Both the position numbers and the translations under genes were made by a program. 64,000 bases of DNA, from positions 1-64,000 of IMG/VR virus record IMGVR_UViG_3300011560_000001; one strand, 5' to 3'. The DNA is from a virus. Its lineage: Duplodnaviria > Caudoviricetes. Every line of letters starts with the position of its first letter. The stretch's first letter is position 1. Of this stretch, positions 670-9,069 are shown in pieces. Under the pieces are notes generated by a model that was not told the origin of the DNA, did no database searches, and saw only the letters and a program-made list of their open reading frames with translations.

Positions 670-723
670 CCCCTCCCTCCGGCTTCCGCCAGGGGGAGGG
701 GCTTCGCATGCGTTTTCTTTTTT
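670..723. terminator. bidirectional hairpin terminator between convergent genes
   Basis: CCCCTCCCTCC-GGC-TTCC-GCC-AGGGGGAGGGG hairpin followed by a T-rich tract; lies between the 651 stop (+) and the 750 stop (-). Confidence 0.7.
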
Positions 724-749
724 GTTAAACGAGGATCAACATACTTGAT

Positions 750-1004
750 TCATTCGATGGTCCGCGCTTCCCCTTTTGGACGCGTTGCATCGAAATGTTC
801 TAAGAGTTCGAACATCGATGGTGCTTTATAAACGATTCTACAGAAGTCTACCGCGTTCGTTTTACCTCCGGTAATAAAGTTGATACCTAGCTTCCTGAAT
901 TGATAGTCAGAGACGCCCTCAATGCGTGAGAGCTCACGAAAAACACACGCCCTGGATAGATTGAGCAGGATCTGCCCGTTTGGATAACTTGAAGATATAT
1001 CGAG
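750..1004 (-). CDS. exon 2 of the split family-B DNA polymerase exonuclease/motif-A subunit (84 aa)
   Basis: Manual translation LDISSSYPNGQILLNLS...ARTIE*. It has no start codon. Joined to exon 1 (...LFVAD) it restores Pol B motif A (D-x-x-S-x-Y-P). It is preceded by a G, the group I omega-G. Confidence 0.9.
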   Translation of the reverse strand, partial: LDISSSYPNGQILLNLSRACVFRELSRIEGVSDYQFRKLGINFITGGKTNAVDFCRIVYKAPSMFELLEHFDATRPKGEARTIE

Positions 1005-2766
1005 CTCTTACGATGGTTCAGTAATTTCTATACATGAACGCAACGAAAAATAGACCATATCTTAGCCTGTCTTAGATTTGCATTAGCAAACCGAACGGTG
1101 TGTCTACAACACCTCGACTGACTTCTCCCTTTTCAGAGAACATCCTATTTCTCCTACTCCGCGCAACCGGATGGTCGTTGAACGTTACCCGTAGCCTGTC
1201 CGTGTTAACCACGCCAACTCATCGAGTCAGTCACGACAGTCCGTAGGGTCTTCGCTGCTACGGTTACCTTATTTTTATCTTCTACCCTTAGTACCACTGT
1301 CGCCTTTCGCTATCCAAGAAAGCAGTGGCTTTTATTGCAACATAGGTAATCCCCTCCAACTTTTTTCTGTCTTTCGACAACCATCACGTTTACCCTTTCG
1401 GATTGCGTTGTGGTGTGGAGGGGCATTAAAGGTTTCCAGCAATTAAAGAGAGTTCACCCACTCATTACAAGTAGGGGGACCTGTTATCGTTCTAATGGAA
1501 CATTAAATACACGCTTCTTCTTAGGAACTAATTTATTAACATCGAAATCAGGCATAGCGGCAATATCATCGGCATAACGAAAACACCAAGGCTGTTTCGT
1601 AGGTACTGCACGACGATCGCAATGACGTCTTACGGTAATCCAGGAGATTCCTAACGCATTTGCGGCAGCAGTTACTGATGGAAACACATGTCGTTCGTTC
1701 GTCTCTTTATTAATAGCGAGAATACCGCGACCATCAGTGTCCTCGACACGACGATCTTCTCCAAGTTTCCACTCCGGCCAAGGCGTATTGTCCGTGGCAA
1801 ACTTGATGTATAAATCGCATTCTGGGATACGTTTCGGAGGATTGTTTACCCACCATTTGAAACGTCCTTTCGGCACGTACGGATAAGCACGTTCCGCTTC
1901 TGCGATACTATTAAAACGACGTTCGATTCGTGCACGGTAATCATAAACCAAAACGGGTTTTGACGTACCTATACACAACCCTGCCATACGAGCATGTTGA
2001 TTGTTCTCAGCATATGTCGCCCATTCGAGGTTGTCAAACCAATCGTCACCTTTAATTCCGTTTTTATGATTTACGGTTAAGTTCACAACGTTAGCATCAT
2101 ATCTCGTAAACGCTAACATGATAGCTCGGTGACGATACAACTGCGGTGTAAACCCACTGTCGGGAACCACTTTACGATAAGCGTATCCGCCAAGACGTGT
2201 GCCTTGCTGAACCGTTTTCGTCCACGTGATAGGATCCAACGAAAGAAGACTAATACAATGTCCTTCTTTATTTATCGCGTAACGAGATGCAAACGGAATA
2301 TAACAATAACCTTCGAATCCCTCAACTTCTAACGGCCCATTACGGAAACGGTAGATGTGATTGCTATACGAAAAGTTAGTCGGATCTCCGTCCACAAACA
2401 ACGATTCAATTTCATCGTAAAGATGGTCTGGTAAAACAACCCGTTCGAGAGCAGTGAGAACGATCATGCCGAGATCGTATTTTCCAACGCCTCTATACCA
2501 ATCGATTTCAACATAAGGGACACCATCTACAACTTCGTAAGGGACGACCCTATCTTCTTTATAGTCGTACAACTCGCCATCTTCAAATATACGATAACGA
2601 CGATTGGTATACGGTAAATAAGCTGAATCTCGATAGTCAATAGTTCCAGTTTGAGTATGTATAGATTTTTCCATCTCGTAAACCTCATGTAACATCTAGA
2701 TGTATCGGCCTCTCTTATACCACACACGATTCTTACATGAAGTAAACTTTTACAGAACGAAGGTTA
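1005..2766 (-). mobile_element. group I self-splicing intron (1762 nt) with a homing endonuclease ORF near its 5' end
   Basis: The 5' exon ends in U (GAU|) and the intron ends in G. Core elements (minus strand): P AAUUGCUGGAAA (1433-1444), Q-like CGUAGCAGCGAAG, R GUUCAACGACCA (1172-1183), S AAGAUAUGGUCU (1052-1063). P7 GACCAU/AUGGUC is complementary; P3 is CUCUCUUU/AAAGGGAG; P2 hairpin CCUACUU-GUAAU-GAGUGGG follows the ORF stop. Confidence 0.93.
1484..2695 (-). CDS. intron-encoded HNH homing endonuclease (tandem NUMOD4-HNH, C-terminal NUMOD1/IENR1-like repeats)
   Basis: Intact HNH_3 motif TVNHKNGIKGDDWFDNLEWATYAENNQH; degenerate first HNH (LFVDGDPTNFSYSNH); NUMOD4-like Y-x-I-x-x-x-G segments; NUMOD1-like FNSIAEAER and FPSVTAAANALGI. 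Confidence 0.92.
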   Translation of the reverse strand: MLHEVYEMEKSIHTQTGTIDYRDSAYLPYTNRRYRIFEDGELYDYKEDRVVPYEVVDGVPYVEIDWYRGVGKYDLGMIVLTALERVVLPDHLYDEIESLFVDGDPTNFSYSNHIYRFRNGPLEVEGFEGYCYIPFASRYAINKEGHCISLLSLDPITWTKTVQQGTRLGGYAYRKVVPDSGFTPQLYRHRAIMLAFTRYDANVVNLTVNHKNGIKGDDWFDNLEWATYAENNQHARMAGLCIGTSKPVLVYDYRARIERRFNSIAEAERAYPYVPKGRFKWWVNNPPKRIPECDLYIKFATDNTPWPEWKLGEDRRVEDTDGRGILAINKETNERHVFPSVTAAANALGISWITVRRHCDRRAVPTKQPWCFRYADDIAAMPDFDVNKLVPKKKRVFNVPLER

Positions 2767-4263
2767 ATCCGCAACAAATAATCTAATATAGCTCCTCAGG
2801 TTCGGCATATCCCAGAATAGATGAATGCCGTTGTCCGCCATGAGATCGCATGGTAATGTGACGATATGTCCGGTTCGTGAGATAACCCACTTATCTTCTT
2901 CCTGGGTCATGTCGTCGGCAGTGCAGCCCATGACTTCCCCACGGTTAAGATAAACGAAGAAGAGTTTATCGCAGATACGTTTAGGGTTAGAACTGAAATC
3001 TTTCAAATCCGACGCCGCTAAACGAATAGGGATGGTCATCGAATAGTCTTTTGTTTTCTGGTCCAACGCTTCGATGCCCTGGTTATCCCAAAGGTTATAT
3101 ACACCGTAGTCGATTTGGTGGTTCGTTTGCATCTCTTCGTGCCAGGCGAGCTCCGTGAACCCTTCTGTACCAGGAATTGCTTTTAATTTCGTATGGCATT
3201 TATTTCGCTCTAATACCGCATCGAGTGAATAGCGTCCCTCATCCGGTCTTCCTAAACGAACGAACTTATAACCACACATCGCATCCATAACCTGATACGT
3301 GGCCATCGTATAAAACATCGGCCAGGTTTGCTCAAGGGTAAGGTTGGTTTTACGACCTGAAGCAGATACCTTGTCGGTCTTCGGTGGTACCCAGCGAGCA
3401 ATACGATACTTAGGTGGTACACGAGGATCGGAGAAAACATCCTCAGGACGATACCCTTCCTCGTTCAGCGCCTGGAGCATGCGCGGAATATCGAACGCGA
3501 TATTCCAGCCAAGGAGATAATCCGGCTGCCATTCGTGAACCTTTTGCATGCATTGGATAACCGCTTGCGCTGGGCTTTCTACGATTCGCACATCGTACTG
3601 ATATTTTTCGAACGCGTGAGGATCTTCTTTGGTGTTCAGACGTTCGGCCAGGTAATATCGAATCTTCTCATGGGTTTTCTCAATCGCATTCGGAATATGG
3701 CCAACGAAGTCCTTGGTATAGCAAAGGATCGCATTGTATCCCATTGTAATAGACATACAAACGATCTTACCATGTCCGTGGACAACGTCGGTTTCGATAT
3801 CGAAACATGCAATGGAAGCGGGTAATTTATCGACGTATTCCGGCCATTTTGTATTGTATTGGGTTTTTAAATAACAGCTAGCGCTAACGTCCGTACCATA
3901 GAGGTATGGACTCCGGGCGAGCTGTTGTAAACGGGTGTTATCATCAGCACGTCTTTTATAAAGCACCGAACTGATCTTTTCAACCAGTTCGCTTTGGCGG
4001 ACATCGTAGCGACGCACATGCGAGAGCTTCTCGCTTTCCTTTTTATATTTGTTCTTGCGTTTACTCTCTACCGTCACCCAAAACGGACGTTTGTAATTCT
4101 CGAAGAAGCGAAGGTTCGTCGCTTGCGTATTATCATCAAAGAACATGATCTCTTTTGCGATCATGAGGTCGTTCTTACTACCATCGTTCGCTTCGTTATA
4201 GCTGATGTGTCGACATTGAATACCGAGCAGTTTCTTCTTAGGTTTTCGTTCTTGTTCGCTCAT
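2767..4263 (-). CDS. exon 1 of the split family-B DNA polymerase: 3'-5' exonuclease subunit (phiKZ gp82-like); spliced product about 583 aa
   Basis: ExoI CFDIETD, ExoII GWNIAFDIP, YSLDAV and ExoIII YNLWD motifs. The ORF stops at VAD, immediately before motif A, where the intron begins. Confidence 0.9.
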
Positions 4264-4484
4264 GGCTTGATAAACTCGTAATAAGTGTTAAAAGGTGATT
4301 TTCTATATCATCCTCACGTTCTGTTGTTTTTAACCGACCACTCTTATCGCTTGGGGTGTGAATGGTAATGCTACACTCAAAAGGTATTTCTATGAATGCC
4401 GTTGCATAGCAACGAACACATTGTGATTGGTGCGGCCAGCCGATCCATTAGCCCTTAAATTTACGTAAATTTAGAGAGTGTATA

Positions 4485-5795
4485 ATGTCATTACTACAAC
4501 GCGTGTATGGTCATGACGAGTTAACGATGGAGGCCATCAAGTTTCAGGATGGTTCCTTGTTCAAGGAAATGACCGAGTTCTTCAGAAGCAAACAAGGACT
4601 GGATAAAAAAGAGGTTTTAAACGTTTTCAAGGACGGTCATTTAACCGAGATGGTTAAACGCTATACGGGGTTGAACATCGAATTCTCGGTTGACGTAAAG
4701 ATGGGTCAGATGAATGCCTACGTGTACCCGCCGGATATTTCGACAAACAACACGATCCTGGCCGACTATCATCGATTATGGATGCGCGGTGCCGATGGTG
4801 TCACACTCCTTAAGAAGATTAAAGATACGCCTGTTGGTTATGTCGATTTAGAAAAAGGTCGTGTTTACGGTATCTTTGAGGAATTGAAGATTCGTTCCGC
4901 CATCACGTATGAATTGCTAACAGCGACAGAACCATTTATTCCGGAAGAAAAAGCAGCCATAATGCTGCACGAAATCGGGCATGCGTTTACTTTCCTTGAA
5001 ACATTATCGGAAACGGTGCGTGTCGAAGCCTCAATCATGACTGTACAGCGTGAGCTGCTGGGGACAACCGATAAGGTAAAACGTATCGAACTGGCTAAAG
5101 CGTTAAACAAAACGCTGGATACCAACGTCGACGTAAACAAAATCAGTGATTCAGACGATGGTAGTGTCTGGTACACGGTTTACGTGTCTAACAAAGCGAT
5201 GCAGTTAAGAAACGTAAACAACGCTGGACGATATACCGACGTTGCTTCCGAATTCATGGCTGATCAGTTCGCTACGCGGCACGGTAGCGGGGAGTATCTC
5301 GTTAGCGGGCTTGCTAAAATGTTTCGGCTTTATGGCACCAACTCCATGAAGTCCAAAACGATGTTCTGGCTCTCCTTCATTATGTATGCTACTATAGCTT
5401 CTATGATGGCGATAGGTTTAGCTTCTGTCGGTGCTATCGGCGTGTTGGTTGTTGTCGCTGTAACCGCGCTTTCTGTTTGGTTGGATCCGACATACAGCAT
5501 TTACGATAATGACATGGAACGATTCCGTAAAATCAAACAAGATTTAATCATACGTCTGAAAGATCGTGATGTTCCAAGCGATGTTCGTTCCATGACGTTG
5601 GATACCATCAAAACAATCGATGAAACGCTGAGTGTGATGAACAATAATCGTACCTTTTCACAGATGGTTACGCTTATCCTTCGTCCTGGGGTTCGTAAAG
5701 CCGTTAAACAGGAAGAAATTCAGCAAGTCCTTTCTTCTACAATGAACAGCGATCTGTTCAAAACAGCAGCGACTCTTGATTCCATTATCGCCTAA
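4485..5795 (+). CDS. virion head protein with an M48/zincin-like metallopeptidase motif and a hydrophobic hairpin
   Basis: HEIGH motif, downstream EFMADQFA, two hydrophobic segments (FWLSFIMY...LSVWL), N-terminal LTME|A processing-like site; first gene of the head-protein block. Confidence 0.7.
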   Translation: MSLLQRVYGHDELTMEAIKFQDGSLFKEMTEFFRSKQGLDKKEVLNVFKDGHLTEMVKRYTGLNIEFSVDVKMGQMNAYVYPPDISTNNTILADYHRLWMRGADGVTLLKKIKDTPVGYVDLEKGRVYGIFEELKIRSAITYELLTATEPFIPEEKAAIMLHEIGHAFTFLETLSETVRVEASIMTVQRELLGTTDKVKRIELAKALNKTLDTNVDVNKISDSDDGSVWYTVYVSNKAMQLRNVNNAGRYTDVASEFMADQFATRHGSGEYLVSGLAKMFRLYGTNSMKSKTMFWLSFIMYATIASMMAIGLASVGAIGVLVVVAVTALSVWLDPTYSIYDNDMERFRKIKQDLIIRLKDRDVPSDVRSMTLDTIKTIDETLSVMNNNRTFSQMVTLILRPGVRKAVKQEEIQQVLSSTMNSDLFKTAATLDSIIA

Positions 5796-5827
5796 TCTCT
5801 TCTATTTTTACTGTAAAGGAATTTAAC

Positions 5828-6268
5828 ATGAATATTTCTGATTTCGCCGTTCAGCTGAAAGACCTGGTTCGTGATTTCCCGGCCGAACAACAGACCCGCG
5901 CATTAAGTATTGCCGCAGGTTACATTGCTGGCTACAGCATGCCGGTATTCGCTGAAAAAGAAGATCTGACTGCAGATAGCATTTTCGTTCGTGAACATCT
6001 CCCTAAAATCCGTGAAGGGCTGGATAAGCTGAACAAGGTACTGGTTATCGGGCTGGCTGATGCGTTAGACGTTGCTCGCTACTTCTGGTGCCTGCGTTAC
6101 CGCATGGTGCATGAGCCAACCGCACCTGAAACCATGCTGTTATTAGCAGCTGCTGTTCGTGACCAAGAAACCGCAGGGCTGCCTGACGTTATCGAAGGCG
6201 TTGATCCGAAACTGGTTGCGCAACTCGCAACGGCTTTCGCTAACGCACTGCAAGGAGAGAATGCATGA
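5828..6268 (+). CDS. small virion structural protein (putative)
   Basis: AAGGA RBS; biased codons; ATGA overlap with the next gene; lies in the head block. Confidence 0.65.
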   Translation: MNISDFAVQLKDLVRDFPAEQQTRALSIAAGYIAGYSMPVFAEKEDLTADSIFVREHLPKIREGLDKLNKVLVIGLADALDVARYFWCLRYRMVHEPTAPETMLLLAAAVRDQETAGLPDVIEGVDPKLVAQLATAFANALQGENA

Positions 6269-9069
6269 GTATCCCAGTTATTACCCCAGACCACAACGAA
6301 TTCGGTTTAGCAACCGATTACGGAGTGGTTGAAATGCGTCACGGTATGCTCATGGCATTCCCTGACGAAGACATCCAAACCAGTGACGGTTCAAGCGTCG
6401 TTACCACCGAAGATCAAGAACTGGTTTCATTTGACGTTAACGAATTCGTAGCCTCTGGTGAAGAAAACGTTCGTCTTCACGAGCAACTAACAACGCGTGG
6501 TATTTCTCGCGCCGATGTACCCGAACTGCGTATGCGTCTTGGTGATGCGTTCCCGAAACAACTACCGGATGCTTTCTTCACCGAAATCCCATCACGTAAC
6601 GGCGTTGAGTTGGTACAGGAAGGATTCGTTGCCAAGGTCTCTAAACTGTTTGTCGATGGTGCGAAGAAAGTCTGGGAACTCATTAAGCGTATCTGGACAT
6701 TCGTCTTCGAATTCTTTAAGAAGACGCTACAGAAAATCTGGAAACATTACGGCGGCACAAATAAATTTATCGCTACCACAGACGACATCATCCAAGAAGT
6801 CATCGATGCGTTAGGTGCAGATTATCCACGTTTCAAAGAAATGTTGGATAAAGAGATGACGGTTAACGACATCTACAACGAACTTGCGGGATACAGCAGT
6901 GCGATTAACCTTAAGGAAATCGCTGACAAAAATCTGAAAGAAAAGGCTAAAGCAACCGCTGAATGGCTTATGCGGATGGTTCCTTTTGTCATTGAAAAAC
7001 AAAAGGTATTTGCTGATCTTGTCGCACAAATGAGTCATAATGGCGGCACTTTCCTTGACTTAGGTACTACCTTAAAAGACATCGACCGTTTCCGTGGTGA
7101 CCTCCAGAAACACTGGGACACCCCAGAATGTGTTGGCGCACTTCACGCGATTGTCCCGCTGATTTCAGATCGCGTCCAGGTGGTTGCCGCTGCTGATATC
7201 GTGGAAGAATGGGTACGAAAACATCAAACCGAGCTCCACGATGAAAACACCATCCGCGACAGCAAGGAAGCTTGGATCCGCGAACTCCACGATAAGATGC
7301 ATGAACTCGCTGAACCGTTCACCGCGTTTAATGACATTAAGTTCGAAAAGACGCTGAAAGAAGCAGAACAGGTCTTCAAGGCAACAAAGGAAATGAATCC
7401 AACAGCCAATATTCAGAGTGGTGATATTGAGCTGTATGAAACATACATGAAGTTAACCTACCAAACGTTGTTCGCTTATAGCCGTTTGATCTCGGCGATG
7501 TCACGTTGGTTAATGGATATCCAACTCGCTCACATTCAGGTAGAACAGCTCGTTGCGCGCTATCGCGCTTTCGAACTCAAGAACCATTTCATTGTCCTCG
7601 AACGTGACGATGAGTGGAAAGCTATCTATAACGCGTTGAAGGCAAGAGCGGTAAAACCCTTGAATGACTACAAAGAGAAATTCAAGGAAAAAATGGATAA
7701 GCAAAAAGAAGATGCGAAGACACTCGATCCTGCTAAGAAAGAGGCGCTTGCCAAGATGGTTGTCGATTTCTTTAAGTTCGAAAGTTTTGAAGACGACGTA
7801 TCCGGCTGCGCTTATTTGACCGAAACAGACCGTCAAGCACGTAAAGATCTTGTTGAGATTGACGAAGCCATCTATCGGACTTCGCATCGTGGTGAGATCA
7901 GCAAACCAGATGAGCAGATCTATCTGGAGCTGCGTGAACGATATATGCCGGACCAGGCGTTAGAGCCGACCATGGAATCGTTCGGTATCATGAAGATGGC
8001 TGTTATCGGTGTCATCATCACGACGGCCTATACCGCGATTCGTCGTCTGTTGCTCTGGATTATTGAACTCTTGAAGAAACGTGCTGATAGCGTAGCGGCC
8101 ACCGAAAAAGCGGCCAACGACGCCATCAAGCAGGCGAAACGTAACGCGAACGTTTATGTTCCTGATGAGAACGTTCGTAAAGAGGTTGATAAAACCGAGG
8201 ATACTGACGCGATGCGTGACGTTGTTGGTGCGCCCAGCAAGTCGGTCTCTGACGTTCCATTAACGACAGAACAGAAACTTTCGGCTGTTTCTGCGATTGT
8301 TGATGGTATCCGTAAGGAGATGGTGACCTTACCGGTGTTCGATCGTCTTCAGCAAGCGTGTACGTCTTTAACGTTAGGTTATTTCCAGGAAGGTAAGCTG
8401 GATACTATTCTTCGTGAGATGCGTCGTCTGCGTCCCGATCGTATCGTGTATCTGAATGACCAGTGCAAAGAACTCGAAGGGGCGTTAGAAGACCAGAAAC
8501 GCGCTAAAGAAGGTGAGATTGCTCCGCGTCTGGCTAACCTGGCTGGTACCATGCAACAGGGTATGGAAGCGTACCGGATGCTGTATGATAATTCGCTGAC
8601 TTTCCGTTTCAACGAGTTAACAACGTCTGCGCACTTACCGCCGAAGGACTTCGCGGAATTCGGTGAGAAGGTACTGCAAAGCGGTACTCCTGTGTATCCG
8701 GACACCAACGTACTTCAGCAGTTAGCGGCCGCACTTGACGGCAACAGCTATCTGTTATTTACCCGTTCTGGTGATGAATTCAGCAAACTTGCCGACAGTA
8801 AGTTTAAAGAAATCGAAACACAGTTCCGCCGTTTAAATGACGTTGCTCGCCAGGTGAAAGCCATCCCGCAAGAAAACGCAACCGAGCTTCGCTCAACCGT
8901 TGATTATATCAACGTACAGATTCGTGAAATCGCTGCGTGGTATAGCTTCGAAGAAGCCTTGCGTTCACGGGTGGATGGGTTAGTGACTGCGTATCGTGAT
9001 TATGTTTTCGCAGAAGCAAAACTGATCAACGAGAAACTACAGAAAGCTGGTTTCGGTAAATTAGCGTAA
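6265..9069 (+). CDS. internal head/ejection protein, multi-module (934 aa)
   Basis: LVQE|GF, KFE|SF and TME|SF sites; the first and last are followed by amphipathic or hydrophobic helices. Confidence 0.7.
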   Translation: MSIPVITPDHNEFGLATDYGVVEMRHGMLMAFPDEDIQTSDGSSVVTTEDQELVSFDVNEFVASGEENVRLHEQLTTRGISRADVPELRMRLGDAFPKQLPDAFFTEIPSRNGVELVQEGFVAKVSKLFVDGAKKVWELIKRIWTFVFEFFKKTLQKIWKHYGGTNKFIATTDDIIQEVIDALGADYPRFKEMLDKEMTVNDIYNELAGYSSAINLKEIADKNLKEKAKATAEWLMRMVPFVIEKQKVFADLVAQMSHNGGTFLDLGTTLKDIDRFRGDLQKHWDTPECVGALHAIVPLISDRVQVVAAADIVEEWVRKHQTELHDENTIRDSKEAWIRELHDKMHELAEPFTAFNDIKFEKTLKEAEQVFKATKEMNPTANIQSGDIELYETYMKLTYQTLFAYSRLISAMSRWLMDIQLAHIQVEQLVARYRAFELKNHFIVLERDDEWKAIYNALKARAVKPLNDYKEKFKEKMDKQKEDAKTLDPAKKEALAKMVVDFFKFESFEDDVSGCAYLTETDRQARKDLVEIDEAIYRTSHRGEISKPDEQIYLELRERYMPDQALEPTMESFGIMKMAVIGVIITTAYTAIRRLLLWIIELLKKRADSVAATEKAANDAIKQAKRNANVYVPDENVRKEVDKTEDTDAMRDVVGAPSKSVSDVPLTTEQKLSAVSAIVDGIRKEMVTLPVFDRLQQACTSLTLGYFQEGKLDTILREMRRLRPDRIVYLNDQCKELEGALEDQKRAKEGEIAPRLANLAGTMQQGMEAYRMLYDNSLTFRFNELTTSAHLPPKDFAEFGEKVLQSGTPVYPDTNVLQQLAAALDGNSYLLFTRSGDEFSKLADSKFKEIETQFRRLNDVARQVKAIPQENATELRSTVDYINVQIREIAAWYSFEEALRSRVDGLVTAYRDYVFAEAKLINEKLQKAGFGKLA

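Follow-up and report, generated by a model that had tools for sequence, protein, structure and literature searches.

The first 64,000 nucleotides (nt) of the virus record IMGVR_UViG_3300011560_000001 (bases 1-64000 of 237,533, with an estimated completeness of 99%; hereafter the window) carry, close to their left end and on the minus strand, the gene for the N-terminal subunit (DNAP-N) of a split family B DNA polymerase, which is evidently interrupted by a group I intron that encodes its own endonuclease. To judge from the sequence, the source of the window is a Goslar-like, nucleus-forming jumbo phage of Escherichia coli (a chimallivirus), as bases 700-4300 have 96.6% DNA identity to positions 79655-83252 of Escherichia phage vB_EcoM_Goslar (NC_048170). 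The locus consists of the following features:

2767 to 4263, minus strand: exon 1 of the DNAP-N gene (homologue of phiKZ gp82 and Goslar gp068), 499 codons ending ...LFVAD (GCG GAU), present in the list of open reading frames (ORFs) and assigned to phrog_3011.
1005 to 2766, minus strand: group I intron of 1762 nt that starts with UAA and has G as its last base (omega-G, position 1005).
1484 to 2695, minus strand: homing endonuclease ORF with HNH and NUMOD1 domains, 403 amino acids (aa) from the first ATG.
753 to 1004, minus strand: exon 2 of the DNAP-N gene, 84 codons starting LDISSSYPN (CUC GAU = L500 D501), with the stop codon at 750-752.

The division of the chimallivirus B-family polymerase into DNAP-N and DNAP-C is already established (PMC13648687). 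In phiKZ, gp82 contributes the exonuclease site (D151, E153, D251 and D452) and the catalytic aspartate of motif A (D562, of which the D562A substitution is polymerase-dead), and gp50 contributes motif C (D426) (PMC13648687). Residues D155, E157, D258, D393 and D501 of the 583-aa protein specified by the two exons together align with phiKZ D151, E153, D251, D452 and D562, respectively. Exon 1, which has a weak Pfam DNA_pol_B_exo1 match, holds the N-terminal domain and the four exonuclease residues; D501 lies in exon 2, in the motif A context D-I-S-S-S-Y-P-N (compare DxxSLYPS). As a first-pass annotation made from the letters of the window had proposed, the spliced protein has the exonuclease (four acidic residues) and, among polymerase motifs, just motif A, and the remainder of the polymerase is encoded outside the window; the protein corresponds to DNAP-N. 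DNAP-C is a homologue of phiKZ gp50 at 144764-146872 of the genome (32% identity, E 4e-126), detected solely by tblastn with phiKZ gp50; Pfam DNA_pol_B (PF00136) had no match anywhere in the genome, even with the threshold relaxed to E 10.

Profile alignment indicates that the exons are neighboring parts of one protein. Exon 1 matches positions 5-494 of PHROG 3011 ("DNA polymerase", 576 positions; E 2e-150) and exon 2 matches positions 495-568 (E 1e-18), and since positions 494 and 495 are contiguous, nothing has been lost or duplicated between them. A 583-aa protein found on 19 public contigs (P0007) is identical to exon 1 plus exon 2 at 583 of 583 residues; the gene is uninterrupted on a metagenome contig (L012, SKEV01002332.1, positions 1566-3317, 94.9% nucleotide identity), and phiKZ gp82 and 201phi2-1 gp144 likewise run without interruption across ...(I/V)ADLDIVSTYPN. 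The intron boundaries were set by the profile join together with these natural uninterrupted alleles, and removal of the intron restores the conserved reading frame seen in the phrog_3011 join and in P0007. The coordinates and exon ends given by the first-pass annotation (LFVAD with GAT/TAA; LDISSSYPN) hold by both sequence and translation: the final GAT of exon 1 adjoins an in-frame TAA (2764-2766), and the predicted spliced junction joins position 2767 to position 1004, ...GTTGCGGAT followed by CTCGATATA... (exon 1 ...GCGGAU, exon 2 CUCGAU...), with the junction peptide LFVADLDISSSYPNGQILLNLSR. The 24-nt spliced junction had 0 exact matches in viral_contigs and genome_contigs, because the intron-less alleles differ at wobble positions beside the junction (C not T at -1). 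A search of PDB sequences with P0007 returned nothing at E <= 0.01.

The junction separates D499 from L500 and is two codons (6 nt) upstream of the codon for the catalytic D501, which bears out the placement at motif A of a group I intron that encodes an HNH endonuclease. Exon 2 thus supplies the catalytic aspartate together with the SSSYPN of motif A, and the annotated 499-aa product, in which both are missing, cannot serve as an active polymerase subunit; with only one copy of the DNAP-N gene in the genome, it follows that replication would depend on splicing. It had also been claimed that ORF callers miss exon 2, and indeed no ORF of at least 40 aa from ATG, GTG or TTG in the ORF list of the window covers it, and it carries no annotated feature in either Goslar record. 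By tblastn, exon 2 matches 277 chimallivirus records.

An annotated polymerase subunit that lacks its catalytic aspartate could mean that the phage is defective and the gene a broken pseudogene, or that the sequence was mis-assembled. The probability of this is negligible: the same arrangement is present in the viable isolate Goslar, which effectively refutes it, as well as in many independent contigs, both exons are strictly conserved at the protein level, and the genome, with its estimated completeness of 99%, has just one copy of the gene. The reading frame could instead be permanently split by insertion of a free-standing endonuclease gene, with two polypeptides reassembling in the manner of T4 gp39/gp60 or of the Aeromonas phage Aeh1 NrdA halves split by mobE. 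Such an outcome has a precedent in this very polymerase, already split once into DNAP-N and DNAP-C, and gene callers predict, in a sister clade, a 47-aa piece (P0021) from an internal methionine of exon 2. It is nevertheless highly improbable here: exon 2 has no start codon that would give 40 aa or more, so that L500-D501 and motif A are not independently translatable, and exactly between the exons lies a full group I ribozyme, preceded by U at -1 and ending in G. An intein was rejected on account of the in-frame UAA at the junction and the separate frame of the endonuclease ORF.

The ribozyme itself was delineated from an Rfam alignment and a scripted check of complementarity. The Rfam search that the first-pass annotation had recommended gives a match to RF00028 over the full length of the model (positions 1548 to 1028, minus strand; 47 bits, E 9.9e-10), which ends 23 nt before the actual 3' end of the intron. 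As group I chemistry requires, the last base of exon 1 is U (-1) and the intron ends ...AAGAG with a terminal G. The earlier assignment of complete P, Q, R and S elements to 1005-1483 fits the helices P3 to P9, P7.1 and P7.2, which can be written out within 1016-1480. All lie on the minus strand, and those for which no sequence is given follow from the Rfam alignment and complementarity:

1016 to 1475: ribozyme core, from the Rfam alignment and the scripted complementarity check.
1477 to 1480: proposed internal guide sequence GUCC, directly 5' of P2.
1475-1471 with 1461-1457: P2.
1452-1446 with 1131-1125: P3.
1441-1436 with about 1263-1256: P4.
1432-1429 with 1270-1267: P5, with a P5 extension of about 155 nt.
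1249-1246 with 1190-1187: P6.
1239-1235 with 1200-1196: P6a.
1176-1172 with 1057-1053: P7.
1171-1168 with 1161-1158: P7.1 (UCCG/CGGA).
1154-1149 with 1140-1135: P7.2 (GGAGAA/UUCUCU).
1123-1116 with 1071-1064: P8.
1039-1035 with 1020-1016: P9.

The sequences UUAAUUGCUGGAA, GCAGC, GUUCAACGAC and GAUAUGGUCU constitute conserved core blocks that align with four other introns. Compensatory differences in P3, P5, P6, P7 and P7.2 distinguish the window intron from a divergent intron at the same site (L006, IMGVR_UViG_3300045988_173921), of which the P7.1 and P7.2 equivalents are likewise compensated. Hairpins P7.1 and P7.2 between P7 and the 3' strand of P3 are the mark of subgroup IA, the usual type in phages, and by the presence of both in its predicted fold the intron is assigned to subgroup IA.

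The most satisfactory candidate for the guide is the AGGUCC beside P2. Its GUCC is predicted to pair with the exon 1 end GGAU (2767-2770) as P1, with a G.U pair at the splice site, and the AG immediately 5' of it (1481-1482) could pair with the CU that begins exon 2 as a minimal P10. The presence of AGGUCC at the same place beside P2 in the divergent L006 intron supports this assignment. Two other arrangements are disfavored in comparison with the AGGUCC conserved in L006: one with a G at intron position 84 (2683), which offers four wobble-rich pairs and a 4-bp P10, and one of hairpins formed by the exon end with intron positions +10 to +18, which lack a G.U pair. All three are candidates. A guide directly 5' of P2 would place the endonuclease ORF in the loop of P1.

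Several features of the ribozyme and of its ORF weigh against an active, mobile, self-splicing intron. The RF00028 score of 47 bits falls 3 bits short of the gathering threshold, which is curated at 50 bits (introns at the same site score 70.4 bits in L006 and 44.7 bits in Goslar); P1 amounts to 4 bp and P10 to 2 bp, and the GUCC tetramer occurs elsewhere in the intron as well; alternative pairings are available in local hairpins close to the 5' splice site; and the HNH_3 domain of the encoded protein, at 23.3 bits (E 4.8e-5), is below its Pfam cut-off of 24.8 bits. Even with these points taken into account, self-splicing of the intron to give an mRNA for the 583-aa DNAP-N can be predicted with high confidence from the sequence.

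The ORF for the endonuclease follows the 5' splice site and precedes the core, with its final ~65 nt overlapping the beginning of the Rfam match. It matches Pfam NUMOD1 at residues 329-358 (29.5 bits, cut-off 22.8) and the HNH endonuclease family phrog_59 (E 4e-18), and its HNH motif is recognizable about H210 (NHKNGIKGDD...NLEW...NN.HA). The protein shares 29.5% identity with PhiPA3 gp210 (E 1e-13 with tblastn, 2e-20 with blastp), 29% with phiKZ gp179 and 98.8% with its counterpart in Goslar, and the ORF is intact; a PDB sequence search with it found nothing at E <= 0.01. H210 aligns, inside an identical NHKNGIKGDD, with the catalytic H82 of PhiPA3 gp210, the H82R substitution of which abolishes nicking (PMC11620839). 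By these similarities it is classed as an HNH plus NUMOD1 homing endonuclease of the I-HmuI/PhiPA3 gp210 type. Translation is more likely to start at the ATG at 2674 (396 aa) than at 2695: a GAGG lies 8 nt upstream of the former, which also agrees with the annotation of Goslar gp069 (396 aa). The ribosome-binding region of this ATG is within a predicted hairpin of the 5' leader (CAUGUAA/UUACAUG), which could couple RNA folding to translation of the endonuclease.

Comparison of alleles reveals that the intron is polymorphic in presence and absence. For the cluster of proteins at 90% identity, at least 101 contigs encode a 583-aa form and at least 76 a 499-aa form, a rough tally that rests on 15 of 215 members. 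In a sister clade (~67% identical over the whole protein, 74% over residues 300-499), an interrupted form (P0019, 499 aa, ending ...LFVADQF) and uninterrupted forms of 578-579 aa (P0020 = 579 aa) differ at the same codon; P0021, the 47-aa C-terminal fragment mentioned above, and these two proteins are on contigs of ~255-259 kb, and no locus for P0020 was found in IMG/VR. Among deposited phage records the motif A region was located at 291 places in 288 records, the listed Goslar record accounting for two. Insertion at this site is accordingly rare among deposited isolates, of which at most a handful are split, with the three extra places only partly inspected.

A second intron lineage occupies the same position. 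In L006, the GAT that ends exon 1 is followed by a different intron of 1536 nt (5498-7033), between exons ~96% identical to those of the window. At the DNA level, the match between this intron and that of the window is confined to a 32-nt core block, and the L006 endonuclease (377 aa) has 42% protein identity to the window endonuclease. The window and Goslar introns, by comparison, are 96.9% identical, the same as the surrounding region.

The exon sequence that flanks the junction has been recoded locally. Background divergence among the four compared alleles is mostly 2-5%, but over the last 40 nt of exon 1 every intron-containing allele differs from the intron-less L012 by 25-28%, and over the first 30 nt of exon 2 the L006 type differs from all others by 33%; all of these differences are synonymous. 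At the end of exon 1, intron-containing alleles have U at -1 and G at -4, the bases needed for P1, versus C and A in the intron-less allele. This pattern is what would be expected as the footprint of homing with co-conversion of exons, and the recoded flanks raise the possibility of mutual immunity between the two intron types.

These allelic data bear on whether the intron is still mobile, or is a decayed passenger that continues to splice but is vertically inherited, with its endonuclease inactive or deprived of targets. The sub-threshold HNH_3 score could be taken to indicate decay, and the equal divergence of the window and Goslar introns and their surroundings is in keeping with vertical descent. 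The ORF has nonetheless remained intact at 403 aa with 98.8% protein identity to that of Goslar, the catalytic histidine and the motif NHKNGIKGDD...NLEW...N..HA are conserved with the active PhiPA3 gp210, 583-aa and 499-aa forms both occur (the at least 101 and at least 76 contigs cited above), and recoding is confined to the 30-40 nt beside the junction, as ongoing homing with co-conversion predicts. An immobile passenger is therefore unlikely, although among the rival explanations it is the only one to keep an appreciable probability.

The overall explanation favored, to which a very high probability is attached, is that a mobile intron of subgroup IA splits a single DNAP-N gene, that splicing yields the 583-aa subunit, and that the endonuclease most likely drives homing. 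The pre-mRNA would be transcribed with the exon 1 frame stopping at the UAA that opens the intron, so that the unspliced product would lack D501 and the last 84 residues. The intron would then fold and splice itself out to leave the mRNA for the 583-aa DNAP-N, which would pair with DNAP-C, encoded about 140 kb away. The endonuclease would be translated in the cytoplasm from unspliced or excised RNA and, by analogy with gp210, would have to re-enter the phage nucleus to reach DNA. There it would most likely nick alleles at the same site in co-infecting relatives, whether intron-less or possibly bearing the rival intron, and repair from the intron-containing copy would spread the intron with a short tract of flanking exon. 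That the endonuclease currently nicks intron-less alleles, with repair copying the intron and its flanks, is somewhat better than an even proposition. Because it is homologous to gp210 with the catalytic histidine conserved, and because intron-less alleles exist naturally, the endonuclease is also a plausible weapon against competing phages.

The core finding is already published for the 96.6%-identical phage Goslar, and elements of this sort are classical. In the Methods of a preprint, Rani et al. (bioRxiv 10.64898/2026.10.01.755736) independently describe the same intron and junction for Goslar gp068/gp069, in which the full coding sequence comprises 79690-81186 plus 82949-83203 of NC_048170 with the same junction between D and L, and they purified an active polymerase, with primer-extension activity, from the inferred spliced gp068 together with gp244. 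According to the preprint, the interruption comes "after the predicted active site", whereas the alignment to phiKZ gp82 made here places the junction before the catalytic aspartate; the preprint describes neither the ribozyme nor the presence/absence polymorphism nor a second intron lineage (10.64898/2026.10.01.755736). The polymorphism, the second divergent intron at the same codon boundary and the local synonymous recoding of the flanks are modest additions made here.

The closest parallel in another gene comes from PhiPA3, where the gp210 intron interrupts gp211/209, the gene for the virion RNA polymerase (Birkholz et al. 2024, PMC11620839). Like the window intron, the gp210 intron is a chimallivirus group I intron beside codons for catalytic aspartates in an essential polymerase, and it encodes an HNH nicking endonuclease; unlike the window intron, its host gene specifies an RNA polymerase rather than a DNA polymerase. 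Activity and a competitive effect have been demonstrated for PhiPA3 gp210 (PMC11620839); for the window endonuclease, activity is predicted and a competitive effect is possible. The genome from which the window derives has a second group I intron with this layout (gp211/210/209) at ~111543-112952 (RF00028, 51.4 bits), which contains a 403-aa HNH endonuclease ORF and splits the gene for an RNA polymerase beta subunit (phrog_3148 positions 632-1050 and 1065-1290). A third, weak group I intron-like match is present on the plus strand at 151877-152238 (31.5 bits, E 3e-7), and no endonuclease homologue was found there.

Group I introns that encode HNH nicking endonucleases are also found in the DNA polymerase genes of Bacillus phages SPO1, SP82 and phi-e (I-HmuI/I-HmuII) and Bastille (I-BasI), where the introns that related phages have at one and the same site are similar but their ORFs are highly divergent, paralleling the window and L006 types (PMC421625, PMC308352, PMC162337). 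Those polymerases are of family A and from phages of Gram-positive bacteria, whereas the gene interrupted here specifies the N-terminal part of a split family B polymerase in a nucleus-forming phage; competition between the intron types is only hypothesized for the window and L006 types. On the analogy of SPO1/SP82 and of PhiPA3/phiKZ, the boundary between D499 and L500 can tentatively be viewed as a contested homing site, with at least two diverged lineages of intron and endonuclease, recoded flanks that perhaps confer immunity, and endonucleases that act as weapons between phages in shared nuclei and drive the exclusion of markers in the vicinity of the polymerase active site, but the likelihood that all of this applies is rather low.

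The td, nrdB and nrdD introns of phage T4 are of subgroup IA with P7.1 and P7.2, reside in genes of nucleotide metabolism and replication, and have their ORFs looped out of the core; these ORFs, which encode GIY-YIG or other endonucleases, are in the loops of P6 or P9. The ORF of the window intron differs in that it precedes the guide sequence and P2, which apparently puts it in the loop of P1.

Downstream of the interrupted gene, a G+C-rich inverted repeat at 661-705 (CCCCTCCCT...AGGGGGAGGGG) separates the end of a convergent plus-strand gene (651) from the end of exon 2 (750, minus strand). It is probably a bidirectional terminator, and it is absent from the listing of the consensus scan.

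For work on the polymerase, the practical consequence is that the deposited Goslar gp068, at 499 aa, is 84 residues short and has no catalytic aspartate, and modeling, expression and comparison need the spliced 583-aa form. The locus adds one more to the mobile introns that interrupt essential replication genes at active-site codons, now in a nucleus-forming phage, in which transcription and splicing would take place inside the phage nucleus and the endonuclease, made in the cytoplasm, would have to be re-imported. The polymorphism, the second lineage and the localized recoding together offer a natural system in which intron homing and competition of intron against intron can be tested in chimalliviruses.

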